From NCBI GenBank assembly GCA_031364845.1, contig JANLWX010000042.1:1-12481 (forward strand): DNA of 12,481 nt, read 5' to 3'. The notes beneath the pieces were generated by a model. That model was not told the origin of the DNA. It worked only from the letters and a program-made list of their open reading frames with translations, and searched no databases. Positions 1-12,481 of the stretch are shown piece by piece (position 1 is the stretch's first letter; every line of letters starts with the position of its first letter). This DNA is from Candidatus Eiseniibacteriota bacterium (GTDB taxonomy: Bacteria > Eisenbacteria > RBG-16-71-46). The translations under genes were made by a program, and so were the position numbers.

Positions 1-899
1 AGGCTCGCGGTCACACCGGCGCGGCGCTGCTCGCAGTAGCTTCCGAGCAGCTCGGGGATGCTCTCGTTCGCGAGCTCGACCACGAGCCGGGCGTTGACGG
101 CGTTCGAATAGGTCAGAAGGTCCTCGAGCAGCTCGTTCAGATGGCGTGCGCGGTCGAGCGCGGCTTCCAGCATGGACTGCACACGCACTCCGCCGGCCTG
201 CGCGCTGACGACCGATTCGAGCGTCGCCATGACGACCGCGAGCGGCGTGCGCAGTTCGTGATTCACGTTGCGCAGGAACTCCGACTTGAGCGCGTCGATT
301 TCCTGAAGATGCACGTTGGTCGCAAGCAGCTGCCGGTGGGCGTCGGTCATCTGACCGTGGAGGCGCGCGTTCTGAAGTGCGACGCCGACGATTCCGAGGG
401 CGGCCTGCAGAATCTGGAGATCCGTCTCGTCGTAGTCCGAGCCGCCGAGCTTGGGCCCGAGTGCGATCCATCCGAGAACTTCCGAGTGGGCGAGCATGGG
501 AGCGAACAGCACCACGTCGACTTCGTCGGTGCGCACATCGCCGGCGAAGAACGGGACCGGATTGAGCTCGAAATGCGCGAGCAGGGTCCGGTTCAAACTG
601 TCTCCCGTGCGCTTCACCGCGGCGCGATCGAATCCATGGCAGCGAATCAGGATCGAGTGCGGCGACTCGCCCTCGGGAATCAGCCACAGCGCGGCGCGGC
701 CGGTTCCGATCTGCCCCATGAGATTGAAGAGCAGCAGATCGGCGGTCTGGTGGACCCCGAGAGATACCGAGAGCTCGCGAGCGAGTTCGAGCAGCGACTT
801 GAGCGAATGCTCGATCTTGGCGATCTCGGGCCCTGCCGGCCCGGAACCCACCAGAATTTCGCGATTTTCCATGGTCTGCCCGACGCGATCCTTATCCAT
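1..899 (-). CDS. GAF-domain sensor histidine kinase (GAF + HisKA), cytoplasmic; 3'-truncated by the window edge
   Basis: Absent from the ORF track because no stop lies in the window; I translated it by hand. ATG at 899 (alternative ATG at 872) opens a frame to base 1: MDKDRVGQTMENREILVG...LKSLLELARELSVSLGVHQTADLLLFNLMGQIG...FAPMLAHSEVLGWIALGPK...YDETDLQILQAALGIVGVALQNARLH (GAF-like), then a coiled coil, then the H-box EIDALKSEFLRNVNHELRTPLAVV (His codon 258-260) and ARHLNELLEDLLTYS. No TM segment seen. The start overlaps the STAS stop (ATGGATAA). Confidence 0.92.
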   Translation of the reverse strand, partial: MDKDRVGQTMENREILVGSGPAGPEIAKIEHSLKSLLELARELSVSLGVHQTADLLLFNLMGQIGTGRAALWLIPEGESPHSILIRCHGFDRAAVKRTGDSLNRTLLAHFELNPVPFFAGDVRTDEVDVVLFAPMLAHSEVLGWIALGPKLGGSDYDETDLQILQAALGIVGVALQNARLHGQMTDAHRQLLATNVHLQEIDALKSEFLRNVNHELRTPLAVVMATLESVVSAQAGGVRVQSMLEAALDRARHLNELLEDLLTYSNAVNARLVVELANESIPELLGSYCEQRRAGVTAS

Positions 900-1254
900 T
901 CGTGCCGTCTCGCAGGACGTCGAGCGCGGCCTGCTCGTCGTCGTCGATTCCCAGGAAACGGTCGATGTTGAGCAGCGTCACCACCGCGCGCACCGCGGGC
1001 GAGATCGCCACCAGCCGCAGGCTCCCGGGGCCCTGGCGGAATTCTTCGACCAGTGCCAACAGCGCCCCGATGCCGCTCGACGCAATGAACGACACACCGG
1101 CGAGGTTCACGACCAGGCTGCGACCGTCGCGGCGGACCTGCGTGCAGGTTTCGACCAGCGCCGGCGCATTGCGCGCATCGAGTTCGCCGCGCACACGAAT
1201 GATGACGGATCGATCCGACACTGGACCGCGCTCAATGGTGAATGGAGTGATCAT
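892..1254 (-). CDS. STAS-domain anti-sigma factor antagonist (SpoIIAA/RsbV-like), 120 aa
   Basis: C-terminal part of ORF 892..1602. The true start MITPFTIE at 1254 overlaps the upstream stop as ATGA and has an SD-like GGAAGGA 8 nt upstream. Motifs: IIRVRGELDARNA, LVVNLAGVSFIASSGIGALL (phospho-acceptor-equivalent Ser codon 1078-1080), LRLVAISPAVRAVVTLLNIDRFL. Confidence 0.93.
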   Translation of the reverse strand: MITPFTIERGPVSDRSVIIRVRGELDARNAPALVETCTQVRRDGRSLVVNLAGVSFIASSGIGALLALVEEFRQGPGSLRLVAISPAVRAVVTLLNIDRFLGIDDDEQAALDVLRDGTNG

Positions 1255-3425
1255 GATGAGGTTCCTTCCCGAACGGTCGATGTGCTGCGCGGCCCGAACG
1301 TGAGCAGAGTGATGTTTCCGCGCGATGTCGCGGGGTGATAGGACACCTCGTGCATGACGCGGTGAATGATCTCGAGCCCGAGGCCGCGACCGCGTTTGCG
1401 GACTCCGGGATTGTCGAAGTCGAGTCCCTTGCGGTTCTCGGGCCGGAACGGCGTGCCGTCGTCGCGCACGACGAAGACGCCGCGCCGCGCTCGTTCGTCT
1501 GCGGGTTGTCCCGCGGTCTCTCCCGCGCGCGGCGGCTGCCACCACAGTTCGAACGTGTGCGAGCCCTGCTCGCCGAAACCGTGCTCGGCGACGTTGGCGC
1601 AAACTTCGTAGAGCGCCGAGCCCAGCAGCTGGGCGTCGGCGTCACTCAATTCGTTCAGGACCACCGTGCGCCGCATCCACTCGCGGATGGCCGGGATCGA
1701 ATCGAGCGACGACGTGAGCCTCAGCCCATGGCCCGCCTGCTCGGCGTCGGCGAGTCGCTTGAGCGCGATGCAGGACGAATCCCCGGGCTCGCACATCGTC
1801 TCGCCCGCGGGATCGAACGCATCGGCCGCGAGGGAGGCGATCAGCAGCGTCTGGTCGTCGCTCGGCGGGCCGTCGCCTTCCCAGCGACGAACGTCGTCGC
1901 TCAGGCGTTCGCAGATCGCATCGGTACCGCGCGCCGCGACGTCGGTCACACCTTTCAGTATCCGATCGAGTCCGTACTCCTCGGTGTGCGCGGCGTCGAA
2001 CGCCTCGCTGTAGCCGTCGGTGAACTGCACCATCACATCGCCGGGCTGCAGCTGAACGACTTCGTCGTACAGCATGCCGCGCGCAACGCCCCCGCGGAGT
2101 GCGGCGAGCGGAATACCCTTGGGCTGCAGGACTTCGGTGTTCTTCGTGGCGTGACGATAGAGGATCATCGGATTGTGCCCGGCGGACGTGAACACCATCT
2201 GGCCGGTCGCCGGATCGAGGATGCCGTAGAACATCGTCACGAACACGCCGGGACGCAGCGATTCGCCGAGGCGCTCATCGAGCTCCCCGAGCAGCGCGGC
2301 GGGAGAGGTGTACGTGTTGCGCAACGCGCGCAGCAGTGCCGAGAGCATGCTCATGACGAGACAGCCCGCGAGTCCCTTGCCCGAGACGTCTGCGATCGCG
2401 ATCGCGATGCGGCCGTCGGGCAATGGCAGGATGTCGAAGTAATCGCCGCCGACTTCCGCGGCCGCGCGATGGCTTCCGCGAACCGTGACGTTTCCCGACG
2501 TGACCGGGCCACGGGGCAGCAACGACTCCTGGATCTGGCGCGCGAGATCGACCTCGTGCGCGAGCCGCTCGCGCTCGATCAGCTCGACCTGGGCATCCTT
2601 GAGTCGTCCGGTCATTTCGTTCACGGCACCCGCCAGCAGTCCGAACTCAGTGCGGTCCCGAAGCTGGATCGGAGTGTCGAGGTCGCCGCGGCCCACGCGC
2701 TCGATGCCGGCGCGCAGCACGCCGACCGGATGCAGCAGTTGCGACATCATGACGAACGCCGCGGCCACGCCGAGCACCAGGAACAGGACGAGCGCGACCG
2801 CCTGCTGGCGGCGTGAAGCCGCGATGCGGCTTTCGATGTAGTGACGGTTGAGCCCGACCAGCGTGCGGCCGATCGTGCCGCCCCCCGGACCCGGAATCGA
2901 AGCGCTCGCGACGATCAACGTCGCACTGGCGGCGAGCGACTCGCCGGCCTTGACGGCGCGCCCTTGTGTGACCGGCTGCAATCCTGCCGGTGGCGCGAAC
3001 GGTGTGCCGAGCATTCGCGAATCCGCATGTCCTTGAATCCGGTCGTGGTGGTCGACCACGACCACGAACGCCAGACTCGACTCGTTCTCGAGCGTTTCCT
3101 TGACGAGCGGCTGAAGCGTCATCTCGGGGAAATCGCCGAGCAGCGCGCCCGAACTAGTGAGCGCGAGATTGCGGGCGAGCAGCAGCAGCCGCGACTCGAT
3201 CTCGCCGGTGAGCGCGGTGCGCGCGTTGCGCTCGTCGACCGTGCCGACGCTCAGCGCGGTGGCGACGGTCAGCAGTGCGGTCGCCGCGATCACGATCCAG
3301 CGGATGCTGAGGATGCGTGAAGGTGCGGCCGCGGCAGCGGCCGTGGGCGTCATGACGGTCGCTGTGGATGCCGACTCATCGACACCGTCTGCGACTTCGG
3401 CGGGTTCCTGCTCGCGTCGTTTCAT
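1251..3425 (-). CDS. Inner-membrane sensor: 2 TM + periplasmic domain + HAMP + SpoIIE/RsbU-type PP2C phosphatase + C-terminal RsbW/SpoIIAB-like HATPase Ser kinase, ~724 aa
   Basis: Start MKRREQ at 3425, 4 nt after the upstream TGA (alternative start MTPT at 3353). TM1 WIVIAATALLTVATALSVGTV; TM2 AVALVLFLVLGVAAAFVMM; HAMP LHPVGVLRAGIERVGRGDL...EFGLLAGAVNEM; linker ERLAHEVDLARQIQESLLP. PP2C motifs EVGGDYFD, IADVSGKG, SAGHNP, FTDGYSEA, DDQTLL. Kinase motifs: N-box EVCANVAEHG, G1 RDDG, G2 RGRGLGLEII. Confidence 0.93.
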   Translation of the reverse strand: MKRREQEPAEVADGVDESASTATVMTPTAAAAAAPSRILSIRWIVIAATALLTVATALSVGTVDERNARTALTGEIESRLLLLARNLALTSSGALLGDFPEMTLQPLVKETLENESSLAFVVVVDHHDRIQGHADSRMLGTPFAPPAGLQPVTQGRAVKAGESLAASATLIVASASIPGPGGGTIGRTLVGLNRHYIESRIAASRRQQAVALVLFLVLGVAAAFVMMSQLLHPVGVLRAGIERVGRGDLDTPIQLRDRTEFGLLAGAVNEMTGRLKDAQVELIERERLAHEVDLARQIQESLLPRGPVTSGNVTVRGSHRAAAEVGGDYFDILPLPDGRIAIAIADVSGKGLAGCLVMSMLSALLRALRNTYTSPAALLGELDERLGESLRPGVFVTMFYGILDPATGQMVFTSAGHNPMILYRHATKNTEVLQPKGIPLAALRGGVARGMLYDEVVQLQPGDVMVQFTDGYSEAFDAAHTEEYGLDRILKGVTDVAARGTDAICERLSDDVRRWEGDGPPSDDQTLLIASLAADAFDPAGETMCEPGDSSCIALKRLADAEQAGHGLRLTSSLDSIPAIREWMRRTVVLNELSDADAQLLGSALYEVCANVAEHGFGEQGSHTFELWWQPPRAGETAGQPADERARRGVFVVRDDGTPFRPENRKGLDFDNPGVRKRGRGLGLEIIHRVMHEVSYHPATSRGNITLLTFGPRSTSTVREGTSS
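1263..1269 (-). promoter_or_regulatory. Shine-Dalgarno-like RBS (GGAAGGA) for the STAS gene
   Basis: The minus strand reads GGAAGGA-ACCTCATC-ATG, an 8-nt spacer to the ATG at 1254. Confidence 0.6.
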
Positions 3426-3429
3426 GGCG

Positions 3430-5439
3430 TCACCGGCCCAGTCCGAGGATCTCGCGGCTGCGCGCGATCTGCTTCTGCGCGCGCGCCAGATATCCCTGTG
3501 CCCGTGCGTCGTTCGGGTCCACGCGCAGCACCTTCTCCCACATCGTGACGGCCTCCTCGAGTCGGCGTGACGCAAACGCTTCCATGCCTCGTGCCAGGTA
3601 CTCGCGCTTCAGAAGCTCACCGACTCCGCGATAGCCCGGTCGTTCCGCCCACACGTGTTCCCAGTAGCGCAGCGCGTCGTCGGGACGCTGGGCCTTGAGT
3701 GATGCGACGCCCTGCTGGTAGAGATCCTCGGCTTCGCGATCCGAAAGCGTGCTCCGTTTCGGCGTCTCGCCGCGCGCCGTGCCCGTTCCCGCGCTCGTGG
3801 CCCGCGGCGGTTTCGGAGCACTTACTGCCGCCGTGCGCGCGCGTGTGAGTGCCGACATCACGTCGTCGAAACCCGATGCACGCCGATCGAGCTTCGCCGC
3901 CAGATCGAGCTGCTCCTGCGCTTCGGCAAGGCGTCCGGCCCGGACGTCGCGATGGGCGGCGTCCACGAGATTCGAGGCGCGACGGCTCAAGGCCTGCTCG
4001 GTGCGCGCGAGCATCCGGGCGGCTTCGGTGTCGCTCGGATCCTGCTGCAACACGGACGTGAAACGATCGCGGGCCGCAGGCAGGTCCTCGGCGGCGAGCG
4101 CATCCATCGCCGAGGCGAACAGCTCGCGGATCTGCGCGGAGCGTTCCGCGTTGCGGTCGCTCTCGGCACGGCAGCGCTCGGCGCCGGCCGTGGCCGCGGT
4201 GTCGGAAGGTGCCGCAGCGCGCGCGAGATCGTATGCGGCCGCGGCCGCGGCGAAGTCCCCCGACTGCTCGAGCTGTGCGGCCTTCCCCTTCAGGCATTCG
4301 ATCTGCAGCGCCAACGCCGCTCGCGAGGTGGGATCGAGCGTCAGCACTGCTCCGATCGCGTCGAGCGCATCGTCGTAGTCGCCGCGCGCCCGGTCGTTCG
4401 CGACGCCGGTCAGGAGTTCTTCGATCTGCTGCGACTGTCGCTGCTGGAACGCCTCCGACAGCTTGCGTTCGAGTGCAGCGTCCTCGGCTTTGCGCGCGGC
4501 GAGGCGCTGCTCCTCGACCGTTGCACCGAGCCGCATCGACAGGCCGATCCGATGGGCGCTCGCGATCGGATTGTTCTCGAACGTGTAGTCCATCGACAGA
4601 TTGCGCCACAGAATTCCCGACCCGGCCGTGAGCACGCTTCCGTTCATGCCGGCGCGCAGAGCCGCAAGATTGAAGAACCGGTACTCGACGCCCGCGTGCA
4701 TCTTCGCGGGCGCGGTGCCCGGCTTCTCGAAATCCAACTCGGTCAGAAGCCCCGGTCCGTTGCCGAGCGGGATGCGGTAACCGACACCGGTCCGAATCGT
4801 CATCGGATCGGGAAGGTTTTCGCGATCGAGCCGGATCGAAGGCTGAACCAGGTTGCGCACCGCGAGCCCGAGACGCATACGATCCGCCCAGCGCGGGCTC
4901 ATCCCCACGCCGAGATCGACGCCGAGCCCATTGGCGCTCAACCCCGCGAGGCTCTGGCGCTGCAGCTTGACCGCGCCGCCCACGCTCCAGGTTTCGCCGA
5001 GCGCGCGGCCGTATCCCAGCGCCAGCTCCATTTCCGAATCGCTGATGTCCTGGCCGAGCAGCACGTTCTGGTGATCGCGGCGCTCGATGCCGTCGACGCC
5101 GAAGTGGCGGAAGGAGAGGCCCGCCGTTCCCCAACGCCAGCTCGGCAACGCGAACGCCGCGTTGGATTCCTGGAACCCGAGCCCCAGGTGTGCGGACTGA
5201 TTGAGATGCAACTCGCTGCGGCGCACCAGCCCAAGTCCCGCGAGATTCCAGTACATGGCACTCGCGTCGTCCGCGGATGCGACGAACGCTGAGCCCATCG
5301 CGAGCGCGCGCTCGCCGGCGCCGTAGGCGAACACCGACTGCGTTCCCGCGGAGTCTTCTGCCGGCGCGGTCCGCGCGAACGTCATCGCCGAAATGACCGC
5401 CACCGTGAACAGCGCGAGCTTCATCGTTCGAAGGGTCAT
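3430..5439 (-). CDS. PorV/PorQ-family (FadL-like) outer-membrane beta-barrel fused to a C-terminal coiled-coil + TPR region, 669 aa
   Basis: C-terminal part of ORF 3430..6516. The true start MTLRTMK at 5439 overlaps the upstream stop as ATGA. After a signal peptide comes the family N-terminal plug motif GAGERALAMGSAFVASADDASAMYWNLAGL, then amphipathic beta-strands (ELALGYGR, WSVGGAVK, LGVDLGVG, MHAGVEY, LSMDYTF, HRIGLSMRLG ending ~4525), then helical TPR-like motifs (e.g. YLARGMEAFASRRLEEAVTMWEKVLRVDPNDARA). Confidence 0.88.
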   Translation of the reverse strand: MTLRTMKLALFTVAVISAMTFARTAPAEDSAGTQSVFAYGAGERALAMGSAFVASADDASAMYWNLAGLGLVRRSELHLNQSAHLGLGFQESNAAFALPSWRWGTAGLSFRHFGVDGIERRDHQNVLLGQDISDSEMELALGYGRALGETWSVGGAVKLQRQSLAGLSANGLGVDLGVGMSPRWADRMRLGLAVRNLVQPSIRLDRENLPDPMTIRTGVGYRIPLGNGPGLLTELDFEKPGTAPAKMHAGVEYRFFNLAALRAGMNGSVLTAGSGILWRNLSMDYTFENNPIASAHRIGLSMRLGATVEEQRLAARKAEDAALERKLSEAFQQRQSQQIEELLTGVANDRARGDYDDALDAIGAVLTLDPTSRAALALQIECLKGKAAQLEQSGDFAAAAAAYDLARAAAPSDTAATAGAERCRAESDRNAERSAQIRELFASAMDALAAEDLPAARDRFTSVLQQDPSDTEAARMLARTEQALSRRASNLVDAAHRDVRAGRLAEAQEQLDLAAKLDRRASGFDDVMSALTRARTAAVSAPKPPRATSAGTGTARGETPKRSTLSDREAEDLYQQGVASLKAQRPDDALRYWEHVWAERPGYRGVGELLKREYLARGMEAFASRRLEEAVTMWEKVLRVDPNDARAQGYLARAQKQIARSREILGLGR
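5359..5439 (-). other. Predicted Sec/SPI signal peptide of the PorV-TPR protein
   Basis: MTLRTMKLALFTVAVISAMTFARTAPA|EDS: basic N-region, hydrophobic core, A-x-A cleavage motif. Confidence 0.75.
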
Positions 5440-5744
5440 CGTACGACCGCCAGTTTTCGCAGCAGACGGCTGCTGGTTCCATCGTCGAAGCGCACGTCCA
5501 ACTCCACGACGTAGACGCCGTTGTAGACCGTCTGCCCGCGACCGTTGCGGCCATCCCAGCGGTCGACCTGGTGGAGTCCGTTCGAGCGCGGAAGGTTCTC
5601 CAGCACGGTCGCCACACTTTCGCCGCGCGGCGTGAAGATGCGGATCGAAACCCGCGCCGCAGACGGCAGGTAGTAGACGAACGTCGTGGCTTCGCGTCCC
5701 GCGGCGAACGGGTTCGGGTAATTGGACCAGCTCGCGGCGAGCGT
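5436..5744 (-). other. C-terminal FlgD-Ig / T9SS type-A-like secretion sorting domain
   Basis: NYPNPF (5706-5723), a WDG..G..V.NGVY motif and terminal RKLAVVR match the YPNP...G.Y...K pattern of T9SS CTD and FlgD_ig C-terminal domains. Confidence 0.82.
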
Positions 5745-8700
5745 GTTCGCCGTGAGGCCCGCGGCTTCGGACCACATCGGGAAGCTCTGCCCCGCCGCCG
5801 GCTGAATTCCGACCGCGAGCAGCGCGCTCGCCGGCTGGATCACGCCGATCCCCGCCTGTTCCACGCCGATCCGGAAACCATCGGGCGCGCCGTCGGTGCG
5901 GGTCACGATCCGCAGCTCGACCTGCGTCGTCTCGCCGGGGGCGATCGCGAGCGGAGCCGCGGCCAGCAGCACTGCCGTCATCACGTCGGACGCGAGCGTG
6001 CCGCTCTCGGCCCACTTGGCACCATCGACCCACGCTTCGAGGTTCGCTGCACCCGCGCCGATCGGGAGCGGCGCATACGCGCGGTCGCCGGCGCGCAGCT
6101 CGAGCCGATCGATGTGGATCGAGCCTGCGCCAGCGGCGTCGACATTCGTGAGCGCGATCGTGGCCGCTGGGACCGAGCTGCCGTCCGCCGCGAACGCGGT
6201 CGCCATGCGGCTCGTCATCCCGACGCTCAGCGAGCGTGCCGGCGACTGGAGGCGCGCGAGGCCCGAGAGGATCGGAAGATCGCGTGCGGGTGCGGGCCCG
6301 ACGTGGACCGGCTGCCCCGAGTTCGCATCGACGGCACCAATCCCGTCGGCCGCGAGCATCAGCTCGATGCTGCCGAGTGGTGCCGCCGGGCTGATGTCGA
6401 CCGCGACTGTGATCTGCGCCGAGTCGGCAGGCTCGATCAGCAATCCCGGCAGGACGACCTTCACGCTGCCCATGCCGGGCGGGTTCGGAGCCGACGCGAC
6501 GACCGTACCGTTCCACGACACCGTGAGCCTCGAGAAGAACGCCCCCGGTGCAAACGGCCGGCGGGCCTCATCGCGGCAATCCACGCGGAGGCTGTCGAAG
6601 CGAACGCGCGACGTACCCGCGGCACCGGGATTGCGCAGCGTGACGGCGAGTGCGGGGATGCTGGTCGAACCGATCAGCACCGATGAGGTGAACAGCGGCG
6701 CTCCCCCGGCCACGAGGCTGTCCGCGCCGGCTTCGACCGTCACCCATCCACCGGCGATCGGGTTCGTGGCGTACTCCGCCCGCACACGATTGCGCGTGGT
6801 CGCATCGCGCGCGTCGAACGACGTCGTGTCGGCGAGGCGCGCCTGGAATCGACCGAAGGCGGCGGTCGCGGCGACGTCGCCTTCGATCGTCAAGTCGAGC
6901 GGTGTGTTGGCGGGGATCGTGAGCGGCGGTGAGAACGGGATCGTCAGCAGCGGACCGGATCCGCCCTCGACCAGTTGCGTGGTCACGATCTGGGCACCGG
7001 TGCGCACGCGCAACTGCCCGAGAAGCGCCGACGGGTCCGCGACCTGGGCGGCATCCGCATCGACGAGGTTCAAGGCCAGCGAATACACGCGGACATCCGA
7101 CGAGATACCGGTGACGCCCGGGTTGTCGAGGCGCAGGCGCAGCAGGGTCACGTCATCGTTTCCGCGCGCGACCCGCGAGGAGTCGGGCGCGATCAGCGCG
7201 GCCGTCACACGATCCGTCTCGGCCACGATGCGCGCGACCGCTGAGCGCAGCGGATATCCGTCCGGCATCACGGCGACCATGACGGGCGCGCCGCTGGTCG
7301 CGTCGTCGGCTTCGATCCACGAACTGTCGGGAATCGAGACCAGGAACGCGGGGACACTGGTTGCGGACGCGATGTCGAGGCGCAGCGTCAGCGTCGAAGG
7401 CTGGGCCGGATTGACGACGACGGGCGAGGCGAGCTGAAGATCGATTTCGGAGCCGGTCGCTTCGATCGCGGTCTTCACCAGATAGACGTTGGTCCCCTCG
7501 TTGACCTCGACGCGCGTGAGCAGGCTCGACGGCACGAGGCCCTGGCCGGCCGGGTCCGTGAGCCGGATCCTCAGGTGTGACAACCGCGCATCGGACGCAC
7601 CCGCGCCGCCCTGATTCGTGAGCGTGAGGCTGAACGGAACGATGCCTTCCTGTCCGCGATTCACGTTCACCGGCATCGTCTGGACCGGGATCATCGCGAG
7701 CAGGTTGGTGCCGATGAAGATCTGCTGGAGCCCCGACGATGCGAACGGTGAACGGCGGAACAGGCTGGAGACCGCTCCGGTTCCCGAAGCGTTGCCGGTG
7801 AAACGCACGTCGCCGATCGCATTCGCCGTGTAACGCCATTCGAACGTCTCGACCGCACCCGGCGCGAGTACCAACGAGGCCGGCGTCGGGCCGCTCGCGA
7901 GCGTGAGCGAGCCGCTGCCCGAGAGCGTCAATGGCGACGGGGCGACCGCGTTCACGGTTTCGGTGCTGGTGTTGCGCACCGTCATGCGAACGGTCACGTC
8001 CTGTCCGAGAGTCGTCGCGGCCGGCACCGAGATCGAAGCGAGCAGCGGGGCGCCGCTGATCAGCAGCCCGTCCGGGTTCGTGACCGGCTGATCGAGCGGG
8101 CCGTCATTGCCGGATTGGTTGTCGATGCCGTTGATCGGAATCGAGAGCTGCACGGTCACCGACTCGGCCGGCGCGCTCGAGACGTCGACGCTGATGAAGC
8201 TGCGCACCCCGGCAGCACCGATCGGCACCGAGATCAGCGGCGACTGCCATCCGCCCGACTGCGGAACCAGCGGACTGATCAGGATGTCGTCGCCGGCGCC
8301 CGTGAACACGCCGTCGCCACCGTCGCGCCACAGCTTCATCGAGGCGATGTCCGAAGGCGTCGCGTTGCCGAGGTTCACGACGCGCACGCTGCGCAGGACG
8401 TCCGACTTGTAGCCGTCAGGAGGCACGATGAAGTCGAGCGCGAGCACCGCGTCGTCGTTCGGTCCGACGGTGACCGAAGGCGTGCGCATGCTCGAGAGCT
8501 GCACCGCGGCGAATCCGTCGATCGTGAGCCGGCATCCGGAATCGAGCGGCCATCCGCCGGTCACCGCCGTCGGCTCGAGGAAGGCGAGCGCAAACTCGTC
8601 CGCAATCACGGCCGACAGCACGTCGCCGTCGGCCGCAGCGTTGGACGAGACATCGGCGGTGACGAAGATCTGGCGCGTCTGTCCCGCCGGGATGCTCCAT

Positions 8701-11700
8701 CGCAATCCCGAAAACGCCATCGTTCCGTTGGAGAAGAAACCAGTTCCGAGCACCGGATCGACCGCAGTGCTCCCGAGCACACCGTCGCGATTTCCATCGT
8801 CGCGCAACGTCACCACGCGGATCTCGTCGTCGCGTTCGGCCGCGGTGCCCGGACCGGTCGTGGTGTTGGTGATCGTGAGGTCGGACAGCGTTCGATCGGT
8901 CGAATAGCTGTTGGTGGCGACGATCTGGAGCAGCGCCTCGCCGCGGGCGCCCGGACGCACCGAACCCGAAGGCAGGGACGCGGCCGAGAACGTGACGCGA
9001 TCGAGGCTGCTGATCGTGAAGCCCCACGGTTCCTCAACGGGCCGATCCAGCGGGCCGCTGTTGCCGCTCGCCATTCCGACGCCGGCGTCCGGGATTGGCG
9101 GAATCGCGAGGCGCACCGTGCGGCCCTGGGTCGCAAACGGCGCGAGGTCCACGGTCCAGAACACGCGCAGACCACCGAGACCCACTGCCTCGGTGAGCCC
9201 GGTGATTTCCCAACGGCTGCCCGTGAAGATGAGTGCGCCGAGGCGGCGGTCGAGCGCCGGCTGGAAACTTCCATCGCCGTTGTCGGCCCATGCTTCGACC
9301 TTCGCAATGTCGTCGGTGGCAAGTGCCGAGCCTTCGTTGACGACGCCGAGACGCAGAAGCTCATCGGTGGTGTAGCCGTTGGCGGGGAGCAGCGCCTCGA
9401 GCGCAAGCTGGCGTGAGATGCCCGCGTTCAGGTTGCCCGGCCCCGTGGGCTCGAGGGCGACGCGGCTCGCCAGCATGCCGTCGACGACGAACGCTCCCGA
9501 CGGATCGACCGGCCACGACGTGCGGATCGTGACCGCGCGCGCGAACGTGAGATCGGTTTCGCCCTCGAGGCGCACGTCGAGCGTGTCCCCGACGCGCGCA
9601 AGCGCGGTCGCGCCGGCACGCAGCACCAGCTCGATGCTGTCGCGTGACGGGATTCCGACGACGAGTCCGCCGAAAGTCACCCGCCCCGAAGCGAATGAGG
9701 CCTCGTTGCCCGGCTGCTCGACTCCGCGGTGGATTGCGGCCGCGGTGATCGAGGTCCACTCCGCGTCGAGTTGAGCCGCACTGCCGGGTCCGCGTGCGAT
9801 GTTGCGGAACCTGATCGACGTCAGCGTCTCGGCCACCGCCGAGGGATTCACGAACTTCATGCGCCAGATTTCCTGGGCAGGGCCATCCGCCAGCATCGTT
9901 ACGTTTCCGCGCGCCGTCACGGTCAGGTTCAGCGACGGCCGGACCGAGAGCGTCACGGCGGCGAGATTGTTGGTCGGTTGCGGATCGGGATGATCCGACG
10001 CGGTGATCCGCACGCTCGCCGTGAGATCGGTACCGCCGGTCCCGGCGAGCACCGTGGCGCGGAGTGCGAGCGTGGCGCTGGTACCCGCGGCGAGCGCCCC
10101 CGCACTCCACACACCGGTGGCGATCGCGTAGTTGCCCTGACTCGGATTCGAACTCTGATAGCTGAAGCCCGCCGGCAGCGTGAAGGTGTTTGCGATTCCC
10201 GCCGCATCGTCGGGGCCGTGGTTGGTGAGCGTGACCGCGAACGTCACCGCAGCACCTTCGTTGGGATCCGCGAGGTCGGCGGTCATCGTGACGCCGAGGT
10301 CGGTGCTCTGCACGGTGATCGTGCGGCTCGCCGAATCGTTGGATGCGAAGTGATCGGCCTGATCGGCCGCGAGCACGTTCACCTGATGGACCAGCGCGCT
10401 GGCGCCGGTGCCGGCATCGACCCGCGCCAGCAACGTGAGCGTCGCCGTGCCCGCGGTGGCGAGTCCGCCGACGTTCCACGTCCCGGTGCCGCTCGTGTAG
10501 GTGCCCTGGCTCCGCGTCGAGTTGATGTAGGTGAGCCCCGGCGGAAGCGGGCTCGCGATCGAGATCTGCGTCGCCCCGTCCGGTCCGTTGTTGGTGAGCG
10601 TGAGCACGAACGTGAGCGTGTCGCCTTCTGCCGGCGCGGATTCGTCCACGGTCATCGCGAGCGCGAGATCGGCGAGCGGCACCGAGACCGGCACGCTCGT
10701 CGTGTCGTTGGCGGGAGCGGGGTCGGCCTGATCGGCCGCGGTGATCGACGCCTGCGTGACGAGGGTGGTTCCGCCGACTCCCGCGTCGACCGAAGCGCCG
10801 AGTACCAACGTCGCGCTCGCACCGTTCGCGAGGTCGCCGACATTCCATGATCCACTGCCGTTCGTGTAGCTGCCCTGGCTCGGCGTGGAGTTCACGAACG
10901 TGAGTCCGGCCGGAAGGGCGGCCGTGACCGCGACCGCGGTCGCCGCGTCGGGCCCGTGGTTCGTGAGCGTGAGCGTGCACGTGACCGGTGCCCCTTCGTT
11001 GGGAGCGACGTCGTTCATGGCGATCGTGATGCCGAGGTCGGTGGTCTGCACCCGCATCGACCAACGGACTGAGTTGTCCGTCGAGTCGTGGTCGGCCTGA
11101 TCCGAAATCGTGACGTAAGCGGTGTCGGCGATGATCGTGCCGCCGGTGCCGGAATCGATCGTGCAGACGAACGTGAGTGTGGCGGCCGCGCCGTTGGCGA
11201 GGCTTCCGACGCTCCATTCGCCGATCCCTGAGTCGTAGCTGCCCTGGCTCGGGGTCGCGCTCACGGCGGTGACGCCCGCAGGCAGCGCGTCCGTCACCGT
11301 GATCCCCGACGCCGCGTTCGGGCCATCGTTGGTGAGGGTCAGCGTGCAGGTGACGGTGGTCTCTTCGTTCGGAACCGCGTTGTCGAGTGCGGCCTCGAGC
11401 CGTAGATCCGCGAGCGGTACGGTCACGAATTCGCTCGCCGTGTCGTTGAGCGCGTCGTGATCGGCCTCGTTGACTGCCGTGATCGCCGTGTTGAACGTGA
11501 TCGTGCTGCCGCCGGTCGCGGCATCGACTGTGGCATCGAGCACGAGCGTGGCACTGGCTCCGATGCCGAGGCTTCCGACGGACCATTCTCCGGTGCCGCT
11601 CGCGTAGGAGCCCTGGCTCGGAGTCGACGCGGTGTACGTGAGTCCGGCGGGCAACAGTGCGCCGACCGCAATCGAGGTCGCGGCGGTTGGTCCGTTGTTG

Positions 11701-12481
11701 GTGATGGTGAGTGTGCACGTGACGCCATCGCCCTCGTTCGGGGTCGCGTCGCTCACGCTCAGACCGAGAGCGAGATCGGCGAGCGGAATCGTGACGGTCA
11801 TGCCCGCCGTGTCGTTGGCGCTGACAGTATCGCGATGGTCGGTGGCGGTGATCGTGGCGTTGTTGGGGAGCGTCGTCCCCCCGAAGGTGTCCGTGACCAC
11901 GGCGCCGAGCACGAGCACCGCACTGTCGTTCGCGGCGAGCGTGCCCACGGCCCAGACGCCGGTGGCGCGTCCATAGCTGCCCTGGCCAGGAGTGTCGTTC
12001 ATGTAATCGAGGCCGACCGGCAGACGGTCGAGCACCGTGATGCCGTTCGCCGTGTCGGGTCCGTGATTCGTGAGCGTCAGCGTGAAGTAGACGGGTGCCC
12101 CTTCGTCGGGTGCCGGATTGCTCACGCGCATGGCGATGCCGAGGTCCGCGCTCTCGACCAGCATCGACGTGGTTGTCGAGTCGTTCGCGGGATCGTGGTC
12201 CGCCTGGTCGGCCGCGGTGACGGACGTATTCATGATGAGCGTCGTGCCGCCGGTGCTGGTGTCGACGGTCGCGACGATCGTGAGCGTCGCCACGCCGCTG
12301 GCCGCGAGATTTTCGACCGTCCATTCACCCGTGCCGGTTTCGTGGTTGCCCTGGCTTGGTGACGAGTTCGCGAACGTGAGCCCGGCCGGCAGTGGCGCGG
12401 AAACCACCACGCCGCTCGCCGGATCGGGTCCGAGGTTCGTGAGCGTGACGGTGTAGGTGACCGTGTCGGTCTCGTTGGGCC
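5436..12481 (-). CDS. Giant secreted/surface multi-Ig-domain protein (DUF11 repeats + other beta-sandwich repeats + C-terminal FlgD-Ig/T9SS-like sorting domain); 5'-truncated, >=2347 aa
   Basis: The frame of ORF 5436..12410 stays open to the window edge (...PNETDTVTYTVTLTNLGPDPASG precedes the listed GTG), so the real start lies upstream. The protein is Thr/Ala/Val/Gly-rich with DL...TLTNxGP...LPAGL...SQG.Y...G.W.VG.L...ND repeats. C-terminus: SNYPNPF...VSIRIFT...WDGRNGRGQTVYNGVYVV...RKLAVVR-stop. Confidence 0.93.
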   Translation of the reverse strand, partial: PNETDTVTYTVTLTNLGPDPASGVVVSAPLPAGLTFANSSPSQGNHETGTGEWTVENLAASGVATLTIVATVDTSTGGTTLIMNTSVTAADQADHDPANDSTTTSMLVESADLGIAMRVSNPAPDEGAPVYFTLTLTNHGPDTANGITVLDRLPVGLDYMNDTPGQGSYGRATGVWAVGTLAANDSAVLVLGAVVTDTFGGTTLPNNATITATDHRDTVSANDTAGMTVTIPLADLALGLSVSDATPNEGDGVTCTLTITNNGPTAATSIAVGALLPAGLTYTASTPSQGSYASGTGEWSVGSLGIGASATLVLDATVDAATGGSTITFNTAITAVNEADHDALNDTASEFVTVPLADLRLEAALDNAVPNEETTVTCTLTLTNDGPNAASGITVTDALPAGVTAVSATPSQGSYDSGIGEWSVGSLANGAAATLTFVCTIDSGTGGTIIADTAYVTISDQADHDSTDNSVRWSMRVQTTDLGITIAMNDVAPNEGAPVTCTLTLTNHGPDAATAVAVTAALPAGLTFVNSTPSQGSYTNGSGSWNVGDLANGASATLVLGASVDAGVGGTTLVTQASITAADQADPAPANDTTSVPVSVPLADLALAMTVDESAPAEGDTLTFVLTLTNNGPDGATQISIASPLPPGLTYINSTRSQGTYTSGTGTWNVGGLATAGTATLTLLARVDAGTGASALVHQVNVLAADQADHFASNDSASRTITVQSTDLGVTMTADLADPNEGAAVTFAVTLTNHGPDDAAGIANTFTLPAGFSYQSSNPSQGNYAIATGVWSAGALAAGTSATLALRATVLAGTGGTDLTASVRITASDHPDPQPTNNLAAVTLSVRPSLNLTVTARGNVTMLADGPAQEIWRMKFVNPSAVAETLTSIRFRNIARGPGSAAQLDAEWTSITAAAIHRGVEQPGNEASFASGRVTFGGLVVGIPSRDSIELVLRAGATALARVGDTLDVRLEGETDLTFARAVTIRTSWPVDPSGAFVVDGMLASRVALEPTGPGNLNAGISRQLALEALLPANGYTTDELLRLGVVNEGSALATDDIAKVEAWADNGDGSFQPALDRRLGALIFTGSRWEITGLTEAVGLGGLRVFWTVDLAPFATQGRTVRLAIPPIPDAGVGMASGNSGPLDRPVEEPWGFTISSLDRVTFSAASLPSGSVRPGARGEALLQIVATNSYSTDRTLSDLTITNTTTGPGTAAERDDEIRVVTLRDDGNRDGVLGSTAVDPVLGTGFFSNGTMAFSGLRWSIPAGQTRQIFVTADVSSNAAADGDVLSAVIADEFALAFLEPTAVTGGWPLDSGCRLTIDGFAAVQLSSMRTPSVTVGPNDDAVLALDFIVPPDGYKSDVLRSVRVVNLGNATPSDIASMKLWRDGGDGVFTGAGDDILISPLVPQSGGWQSPLISVPIGAAGVRSFISVDVSSAPAESVTVQLSIPINGIDNQSGNDGPLDQPVTNPDGLLISGAPLLASISVPAATTLGQDVTVRMTVRNTSTETVNAVAPSPLTLSGSGSLTLASGPTPASLVLAPGAVETFEWRYTANAIGDVRFTGNASGTGAVSSLFRRSPFASSGLQQIFIGTNLLAMIPVQTMPVNVNRGQEGIVPFSLTLTNQGGAGASDARLSHLRIRLTDPAGQGLVPSSLLTRVEVNEGTNVYLVKTAIEATGSEIDLQLASPVVVNPAQPSTLTLRLDIASATSVPAFLVSIPDSSWIEADDATSGAPVMVAVMPDGYPLRSAVARIVAETDRVTAALIAPDSSRVARGNDDVTLLRLRLDNPGVTGISSDVRVYSLALNLVDADAAQVADPSALLGQLRVRTGAQIVTTQLVEGGSGPLLTIPFSPPLTIPANTPLDLTIEGDVAATAAFGRFQARLADTTSFDARDATTRNRVRAEYATNPIAGGWVTVEAGADSLVAGGAPLFTSSVLIGSTSIPALAVTLRNPGAAGTSRVRFDSLRVDCRDEARRPFAPGAFFSRLTVSWNGTVVASAPNPPGMGSVKVVLPGLLIEPADSAQITVAVDISPAAPLGSIELMLAADGIGAVDANSGQPVHVGPAPARDLPILSGLARLQSPARSLSVGMTSRMATAFAADGSSVPAATIALTNVDAAGAGSIHIDRLELRAGDRAYAPLPIGAGAANLEAWVDGAKWAESGTLASDVMTAVLLAAAPLAIAPGETTQVELRIVTRTDGAPDGFRIGVEQAGIGVIQPASALLAVGIQPAAGQSFPMWSEAAGLTANTLAASWSNYPNPFAAGREATTFVYYLPSAARVSIRIFTPRGESVATVLENLPRSNGLHQVDRWDGRNGRGQTVYNGVYVVELDVRFDDGTSSRLLRKLAVVR
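5745..7709 (-). repeat. Four diverged ~164-aa beta-sandwich repeats
   Basis: Units at ~7218-7709, 6726-7217, 6240-6725 and 5745-6239. Shared motifs: LTLTNQGGAG/LRLDNPGVTG/VTLRNPGAAG/IALTNVDAAG; RLTD/NLVD/DCRD/RAGD; ADDATSG/ARDATTR/AVDANSG. Confidence 0.72.
8052..9935 (-). repeat. Duplicated two-domain module (A-B)x2, ~320 aa per copy, with Asp/Gly-rich putative Ca-binding loops
   Basis: Matching motif pairs: GPGSAAQLDAEW/GPGTAAERDDEI; WPVD...VDGM/WPLD...IDGF; LALEALLPANGYTTDEL/LALDFIVPPDGYKSDVL; WADNGDGSF/WRDGGDGVF; SGNSGPLDRPV/SGNDGPLDQPV. Offsets are 954-963 bp. Confidence 0.82.
9936..12481 (-). repeat. Tandem DUF11-like domain array, >=7 units of 123 aa (369 bp)
   Basis: The (S/G)QG codons (+ strand gccctg) start at 12348, 11979, 11610, 11241, 10872, 10503 and 10134, each exactly 369 bp apart. 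Complete units start at 12149, 11780, 11411, 11042, 10673 and 10304. Confidence 0.92.

Follow-up and report, generated by a model that had tools for sequence, protein, structure and literature searches.

Few routes are known by which information passes from the surface to the cytoplasm of bacteria with two membranes, and surface-contact sensing is a long-standing question. A locus in the genome (4.6 Mb, 66% GC) of a Candidatus Eiseniibacteriota bacterium raises the question of whether parts of a type IX secretion system (T9SS) could form such a route. The window, that is, the whole stretch of 12,481 nt that was analysed, is the entire contig C98 (JANLWX010000042.1 of assembly GCA_031364845.1). 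As described in a first-pass annotation, it holds five co-oriented genes, all on the minus strand, which adjoin or overlap by 4-8 nt. In gene order they encode a giant surface protein with a C-terminal sorting domain (CTD), a PorV/PorQ-family barrel with a TPR arm, a Cache-HAMP protein with enzymatic output domains (the sensor), a STAS protein and a histidine kinase. The junctions are a 4-nt overlap (giant/barrel), a 4-nt gap (barrel/sensor), a 4-nt overlap (sensor/STAS) and an 8-nt overlap (STAS/kinase), and a scan for promoters and terminators returned 0 promoter-like and 3 terminator-like sites, compared with 0.7 and 5.2 in shuffled sequences.

The gene arrangement is far above chance and recurs in most of 62 genome loci and 69 metagenome loci collected with the barrel-arm alignment. 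The conserved unit consists of three genes, encoding the base and CTD of the giant protein, the barrel with its arm, and the Cache-HAMP sensor. The five-gene unit proposed earlier was upheld as regards this three-gene input core, but the PP2C-kinase, STAS protein and histidine kinase are not fixed parts and represent one exchangeable output, as both the STAS gene and the kinase gene are missing from 20 loci with an HD-GYP output. The genomic evidence that the three genes are functionally linked is strong, and it appears rather likely that the three-part unit signals outside-in across the envelope through a predicted contact between the arm and the Cache domain.

Among the genome loci, the CTD of a giant protein was encoded directly upstream of the barrel in 54 of 62, while two loci (L075 and L080) had it nearby but rearranged and six start no more than 40 bases from the match. 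The sensor gene was directly downstream of the barrel-arm gene in 59 of 62; two loci (L092 and L117) were without a sensor and one (L116) stops at the contig edge. PorV-TPR genes are therefore not usually found without signalling genes, the pattern that the first-pass annotation had named as contrary to its proposal. A sensor was also found in 54 of the 69 metagenome loci, with 12 of the remainder ending within 250 bases and three (L126, L139 and L140) having no sensor within 435-3424 bases. Displacement or inversion of the giant gene relative to the barrel gene was seen in L075, L080, L145 and L341, in each case still within ~10 kb.

Reverse searches start from the sensor or its Cache domain and are thus free of bias from the barrel query. 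A Cache-domain search of 151 genomes of the window's phylum detected 38 sites in 36 genomes, all of which were examined: the end of an arm was encoded directly upstream in 36, a 145-aa remnant in one and neither in one. A sensor-profile search of 121 genomes of a second phylum detected 74 sites in 63 genomes, and 66 of the 71 sites examined follow a barrel-arm gene; the other five comprised a second sensor in such an operon, a sensor behind a short protein consisting only of the terminal module of the arm, a site at a contig edge and two sites with no such gene. The giant base and the sensor co-occurred in 35 of the 151 genomes, with the giant alone in four, the sensor alone in one and neither in 111. 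Homologues and their records carry the names Candidatus Eisenbacteria, Krumholzibacteriota and Latescibacterota, but titles conflict for near-identical loci and only two phylum-level groups are claimed. One genome (G029) with an apparently collapsed copy, lacking the arm end and the sensor, was kept out of the evidence.

The second gene meets the model of the PorV/PorQ family (NF033709, 110.7 bits; cut-off 90). It was rejected as a canonical PorV, as it scores 29.1 bits against the equivalog NF033710 (250 required) and has an extra C-terminal arm of 360 aa. An AlphaFold2 (AF2) model built on 82 homologues (predicted local distance difference test, pLDDT, 90.7; predicted template-modelling score, pTM, 0.60) orders the chain as a plug, 14 strands (residues 75-304), a 44-residue helix, a run of alternating TPR pairs and long helices that reaches residue 538, a low-confidence linker (541-560) and a five-helix terminal TPR module (567-664). 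In Foldseek the barrel matched best to chain F in two structures of the T9SS translocon, 8gl6 and 6h3i, a chain that we take to be PorV, and next to FadL-family channels; the PorV-type barrel read from the sequence alone thus has a predicted fold like that of PorV. The two long loops placed on the outer side are conserved, with 0.65 at residues 119-131 and 0.72 at residues 199-213. From general barrel topology, an even number of strands should bring the arm out on the side of the N-terminus, in the periplasm.

Across 87 paired rows of arm and sensor, conservation of the arm is highest in the terminal TPR module (0.57-0.68, compared with 0.27-0.55 elsewhere), and the lengths of the rod segments are near-constant. 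Three loci also encode this module, in whole or in part, directly before the sensor on a protein without a barrel. In L166 the carrier is a lipoprotein whose gene is inserted between those of the barrel and the sensor, in L285 it is a short protein, and in L239 a degenerate signal-peptide protein retains a remnant. These carriers fit a role for the terminal TPR module as a putative portable sensor-binding module. The L166 lipoprotein (L166:2083-2763) combines an unannotated N-terminal domain with TPRs that are a copy of the terminal module. Lipoproteins that share this N-terminal domain but have different TPRs are encoded in L071, L076, L087 and L111, on the minus strand 3-7 kb downstream and facing the cassette. 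Two more distant PorV-TPR proteins, P0182 (1442 aa) and P0190 (722 aa), have far longer arms that also end in a set-off TPR. An apparent fusion of barrel, arm and sensor (P0130, 1259 aa) is out of frame at the junction and elsewhere, was attributed to a sequencing frameshift and was not used.

In the sensor's periplasmic domain, conservation peaks at residues 76-115, which include the motif DFPExTLxPL, while the pocket region (residues 136-195) is weakly conserved (0.38-0.52). The sCache_3_2 domains are related to DcuS, a sensor of small molecules whose carboxylate-binding residues we take to be R107, H110 and R147. The Arg-His-Arg pocket of DcuS/CitA was considered and rejected for this sensor, since a profile alignment to 3by8 retains only the His and places hydrophobic residues at both Arg positions. 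Covariation between arm and sensor (mutual information with average product correction; effective number of rows 77) gave top inter- and intra-protein pairs that resemble phylogenetic noise. A second Cache-HAMP-like protein, in which no output domain was recognised, follows the STAS gene in the same operon at L311:4611-6299 (G212).

The outputs beneath this input differ between loci. Among the 59 genome loci with a sensor, 33 have PP2C plus kinase, 20 HD-GYP and three PP2C alone, with three cut off, and in one metagenome locus the output is a hybrid histidine kinase. STAS was present in 32 of the 33 PP2C-kinase loci and a soluble histidine kinase gene in 25, whereas neither was found in any of the 20 HD-GYP loci. 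As both genes track the PP2C-kinase and never HD-GYP, they belong to the output module. On a tree of 87 arms (a quick version, unrooted), the HD-GYP label changes four times, with at least two of these changes forced by well-supported branches. Three enzyme classes under one Cache-HAMP input, together with repeated changes of the HD-GYP label, indicate that linkage is preserved on the input side.

The HD-GYP, PP2C and serine-kinase domains all have intact catalytic motifs. The HD and HHExxDGxGY motifs are retained in all 20 HD-GYP genome loci, and the PP2C-kinase of the window has DVSGKG, TDG, DD and the N-box ExxxNxxEH. All the parts of a partner switch (PP2C, RsbW-type kinase and STAS with a conserved serine) are therefore present. 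The serine at the STAS site, presumably equivalent to S58 of SpoIIAA, is retained in 59 of 60 homologues. By linkage, the orphan histidine kinase, whose N-terminal part is GAF-like by inspection only and has no Pfam match, is the best candidate for a partner of the STAS protein. In a large second subfamily (L245:6236-20000 in G159:C20, and most of L277-L310) the sensor output is PP2C alone; in L245 a kinase fused to STAS is encoded by the next gene, followed by a histidine kinase. Duplications were also seen, with two tandem cassettes, one HD-GYP and the other PP2C-kinase, in G265:C32 (L312) and two cassette copies within 30 kb in G013:C1:3690000-3750000 (L050-L052).

The open reading frame of the giant runs off the contig. 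Another contig, C33, ends in an open 1758-aa reading frame with a signal-peptide-like start (by inspection) and 14 DUF11 repeats, and this is probably the N-terminus of the giant, for a total of >4100 aa, although no exact overlap between C33 and C98 was found. Signal-like N-terminal stretches start many homologues of the giant (by inspection). The outer parts vary, with 0-9 DUF11 copies in 15 giants scanned and different tips (CBM96, LamG or DUF7483), while the base is present in nearly all homologous loci at 30-57% identity. The AF2 model of the last 1188 residues (1160-2347; pLDDT 91) is all-beta and made up of tandem beta-sandwiches, two of which match domains found at the N-terminus of sialidases from Bacteroidota (Z 12.5 and 10.8). 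Foldseek with this model returned only generic chains of several immunoglobulin-like (Ig-like) domains (template-modelling score 0.07-0.16), and an Atlas search returned unnamed clusters and a BNR_assoc_N lead at 13%.

The T9SS sorting domain that had been assigned to the giant is borne out by structure prediction, as the modelled tail has the fold of T9SS CTDs of known structure. Against the PorU CTD (6za2_B) the final domain scores Z 11.6, with a root-mean-square deviation of 2.3 over 94 aligned residues, and it also matches the CTDs of PorZ (Z 9.8), mirolase (Z 9.3) and NucA (Z 9.1). The sequence signal of the C-terminus is weak (FlgD_ig/PorU-CTD-like, 21.4 bits, below the Pfam cut-off of 27). 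This basic domain is the best conserved block of the modelled region (0.68 compared with 0.47-0.59), and an ending like [RH]K[IV][AG]V[VL][RNH] is retained in 36 of 36 giants compared.

The physical mechanism that we infer for the relay, including the CTD-barrel and arm-sensor contacts, would begin with export of the giant by SprA, which would pass the CTD to the dedicated barrel, where the giant would stay. The variable tip and DUF11 stalk may then touch a surface, polymer or cell, with the conserved base and CTD resting on the barrel. On its loose linker, the terminal TPR module would bind the conserved DFPExTLxPL patch of the Cache domain, and occupancy of the barrel, release from the translocon or a pull on the antenna could alter this engagement, in the manner of a tether more than of a rigid lever. 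HAMP would in turn shift the balance of phosphatase and kinase on the STAS serine, and the STAS protein may act on the neighbouring histidine kinase or on some sigma factor. Where the output is HD-GYP, this input would instead set the breakdown of cyclic diguanylate (c-di-GMP). We lean slightly towards regarding the cassette as a new class of surface signalling, in which T9SS shuttle barrels have turned into receptors, cargo with exchangeable tips serves as the antenna, a fused TPR arm spans the periplasm and the terminal module of that arm is a portable ligand for Cache-HAMP sensors with partner-switch, c-di-GMP phosphodiesterase or histidine-kinase output, with a similar layout made from other parts at C45, L245 and L246.

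Several observations weigh against this relay. A pattern derived from the terminal TPR module was used to collect the forward set, which includes close kin, so that its loci are not independent. Barrel-arm genes occur without a sensor in L092, L117 and L126, and sensors without an arm in G005:C14, L277 and L315. Most PorV paralogues of the genome lie directly behind a CTD protein, and adjacency of cargo and barrel is in itself ordinary here. The barrel-less remnants could be sensor-proximal gene ends left by deletions, and the Cache motif may be a dimer interface instead of a partner site. No sigma factor or response regulator was detected among the recurrent neighbour clusters of the 62 loci, with no sigma search made genome-wide. 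The linker ahead of the terminal module has 14-44 residues and is of low confidence, which argues against a rigid relay, and 4 of 87 arms are without one or two rod segments, which argues against a strict length ruler. The variable linker and the missing rod segments would favour a tether over a rigid FecA-like lever or a strict ruler.

Three other explanations were weighed. Regulators are commonly encoded next to adhesin genes, and the cassette might be a co-regulated adhesin operon in which the giant is anchored, to peptidoglycan or a motor for instance, by the barrel and its arm, while the sensor separately reads a small molecule to control attachment. The kinship of sCache_3_2 with DcuS, the retained pocket His and the few sensors without an arm are consistent with this, but near one-to-one adjacency in both directions and in two phyla, a linkage that survives swaps of the output, a weakly conserved pocket region and the loss of both DcuS arginines make it improbable. 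A feedback on secretion like that of PorA and PorY would have the Cache domain bind the CTD of the giant while still in the periplasm and would leave the arm to assembly or anchoring. In P. gingivalis (PMC12152298), the sensor kinase PorY is bound and activated in the periplasm by the CTD of the cargo PorA; moreover, the CTD of the giant is basic and unusually conserved, and giant and sensor occur together in 35 of the 40 genomes having either. This reading is nevertheless unlikely, as it leaves unexplained both the peak of arm conservation in the terminal TPR module and the presence of this module on barrel-less proteins before the sensor, without an adjacent giant, in L285 and L239.

Signals might also run in the opposite direction, as in inside-out control of the LapD/LapG/LapA type, with the cytoplasmic state of the HAMP protein setting, via the arm, whether the barrel retains or releases a giant adhesin. 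HAMP domains are able to transmit both ways, and LapD, as presented in PMC3032553, has a CitA-like periplasmic domain and HAMP, and controls a giant adhesin while binding a protein in the periplasm. The cytoplasmic domains of LapD are degenerate receptors, however, whereas the HD-GYP, PP2C and kinase motifs are intact here, and no protease gene is recurrent in the loci, so that control of this kind is very unlikely.

If outside-in signalling through the arm is correct, the cassette predicts a route from surface to cytoplasm made of secretion-system parts, and PorV-family barrels would gain a role beyond shuttling. Two small soluble domains, the terminal TPR module and the Cache domain, are named as a directly testable binding pair. 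As the sensor was matched in 36 of the 151 genomes sampled from one uncultured phylum and in 63 of the 121 sampled from another, it may belong to a main sensory system there, and the natural swaps of tip and output make the cassette a modular scaffold for surface sensing. The features of the window are listed in the table below.

Features of the 12,481 nt window, in gene order, with the basis of each assignment
Feature	Coordinates	Strand	Basis or remark
Giant protein gene	12479-5436	-	5' end open at contig end, 2347+ aa
Giant, variable stalk	9948..12481	-	7 DUF11 Ig-like repeats (Pfam PF01345, 7 stretches)
Giant, conserved base of ~1400 aa, tandem beta-sandwich domains	5745..9932	-	Homologue comparison and AF2 model
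Giant, type A-like T9SS CTD, ends RLLRKLAVVR	5436..5744	-	Structural match
PorV/PorQ-family barrel and TPR gene	5439-3430	-	669 aa
Signal peptide (by inspection), plug, barrel of PorV/FadL type with 14 strands	4528..5439	-	NF033709, AF2, Foldseek
Predicted periplasmic arm: TPR pairs and long helices in alternation (residues 308-538), followed by a low-confidence linker (539-564)	3748..4518	-	AF2
Terminal TPR module (residues 565-664), predicted sensor-binding hand	3430..3747	-	Conservation, AF2
sCache_3_2-HAMP-SpoIIE-HATPase_c_2 gene (sensor)	3425-1251	-	724 aa
Sensor input: transmembrane helix, sCache_3_2 periplasmic domain, transmembrane helix, HAMP	2598..3425	-	Pfam; transmembrane helices from hydrophobic stretches by inspection
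Conserved Cache motif GDFPEMTLQPL	3105-3137	-	Columns invariant or nearly so, 87 rows
SpoIIE/PP2C phosphatase fused to RsbW-type Ser/Thr kinase	1251..2420	-	PF07228 147.9 bits, PF13581 53 bits
STAS gene	1254-892	-	120 aa; PF01740, TIGR00377 over cut-off
STAS anti-sigma-antagonist-type protein, predicted phospho-serine in FIASSG	892..1254	-	PF01740, TIGR00377
HisKA histidine kinase gene	899 to contig end (1)	-	PF00512; rest on contig C114
Soluble histidine kinase, GAF-like region and HisKA, HATPase on contig C114	1..899	-	PF00512; no adjoining response regulator

The genome as a whole is rich in T9SS parts. SprA and PorU were detected over cut-off (TIGR04189 and NF033707), and a separate PorV-family gene adjoins porU on contig C186, forming a PorU-PorV pair. 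There were ~50 CTD-like matches and 12 PorV-family matches at ~11 genes, only one of which was matched by the arm profile. PorV-family genes behind CTD-type proteins were seen on C60, C186, C114, C38, C73, C208 and C45, often behind a TonB-dependent-receptor-like gene (by inspection). This suggests that the genome has many dedicated cargo-barrel pairs with type A-like tails. A search for GldM was blank in this genome, and also in control genomes. Past the continuation of the kinase gene, C114:114059-122943 encodes an acpS-like protein (by inspection) and then a 2734-aa protein with a CTD-like end.

Layouts similar to that of the window, made from other parts, were noted elsewhere. Contig C45 (L198:9142-19235, minus strand) encodes a BNR protein, a Reg_prop propeller protein with a FlgD_ig CTD, a PorV-like barrel with a long tail, a small TPR protein and a CHASE2-SpoIIE protein; the barrel tail contains TPR and a transglutaminase-like GDCDD motif (by inspection), which is reminiscent of LapG. 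A distant variant, L246:3-14036 (G159:C69), encodes a different giant with a CTD, a PorV-TPR protein and then a 1468-aa protein that joins kinase, sCache-HAMP, SpoIIE, HTH and three STAS domains in a single chain.

The cassette is apparently an undescribed system, widely conserved, whose parts are individually known and which falls outside every named system tested. No description of a PorV-TPR fusion linked to a HAMP sensor was found in the full-text literature searched, which leaves most subscription papers and supplements outside. FecA/FecR/FecI signalling relies on a 22-strand TonB-dependent barrel with an N-terminal STN domain, an anti-sigma factor and an ECF sigma factor. It resembles the cassette in that an outer-membrane barrel with a periplasmic extension is encoded alongside an inner-membrane transducer. 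No part is homologous, however, the barrel here being of the FadL/PorV type with a C-terminal TPR arm and the transducers being Cache-HAMP enzymes, and TonB-dependent/STN, FecR and ECF sigma domains were found neither in the five genes nor in the recurrent neighbour clusters of the 62 loci. The LapA/LapD/LapG system, as given in PMC3032553, likewise pairs a giant surface protein with a HAMP protein that has a PDC/Cache-like, protein-binding periplasmic domain, and its LapD is a degenerate receptor. The cassette differs from it in T9SS-type instead of type I export, in enzymes with intact motifs and in having no LapG-like gene. Membership of the Lap system, defined by a degenerate GGDEF-EAL receptor and the LapG protease, was rejected, since the outputs are PP2C, kinase or HD-GYP and no protease gene is recurrent.

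Partner-switch modules such as RsbU/W/V, and the dual kinase-phosphatase SypE acting on SypA, are described in PMC8256260, and the PP2C, RsbW-type kinase and STAS protein with a conserved serine are shared with them; like SypE, the protein of the window unites phosphatase and kinase in a single chain. Here, by contrast, the module is membrane-bound under Cache-HAMP, is replaceable by HD-GYP and has an orphan histidine kinase next to it and no sigma factor nearby. Identity with SiaA of the SiaABC system was rejected (51 bits against a cut-off of 700). The PorA-PorY-PorX-SigP pathway also ties a T9SS cargo to an inner-membrane sensor, and in P. gingivalis, according to PMC12152298, activation of PorY by the free CTD takes place in the periplasm and does not depend on PorV; in the cassette, the predicted arm belongs to the barrel protein itself, and PP2C/kinase or HD-GYP serves as the output. 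T9SS cargo-shuttle pairs offer a further comparison. In the available sections of PMC10994853 and PMC12618676, PorV is a shared shuttle for type A CTDs, which bind its outer loops, type B adhesins have dedicated downstream PorP/SprF barrels, and the type A cargoes share one PorV without a described signalling arm; the word 'signaling' occurs 0 times in the text of PMC12618676 at hand. The cassette has in common with these pairs a 14-strand PorV-like barrel, an Ig-fold CTD, a barrel gene that directly follows the gene of a large adhesin with repeats and a genome with SprA and PorU. It differs from them in that a CTD of type A-like form has a PorV-family barrel dedicated to it, in the TPR arm of 360 aa fused to that barrel and in a fixed linkage to a membrane sensor.

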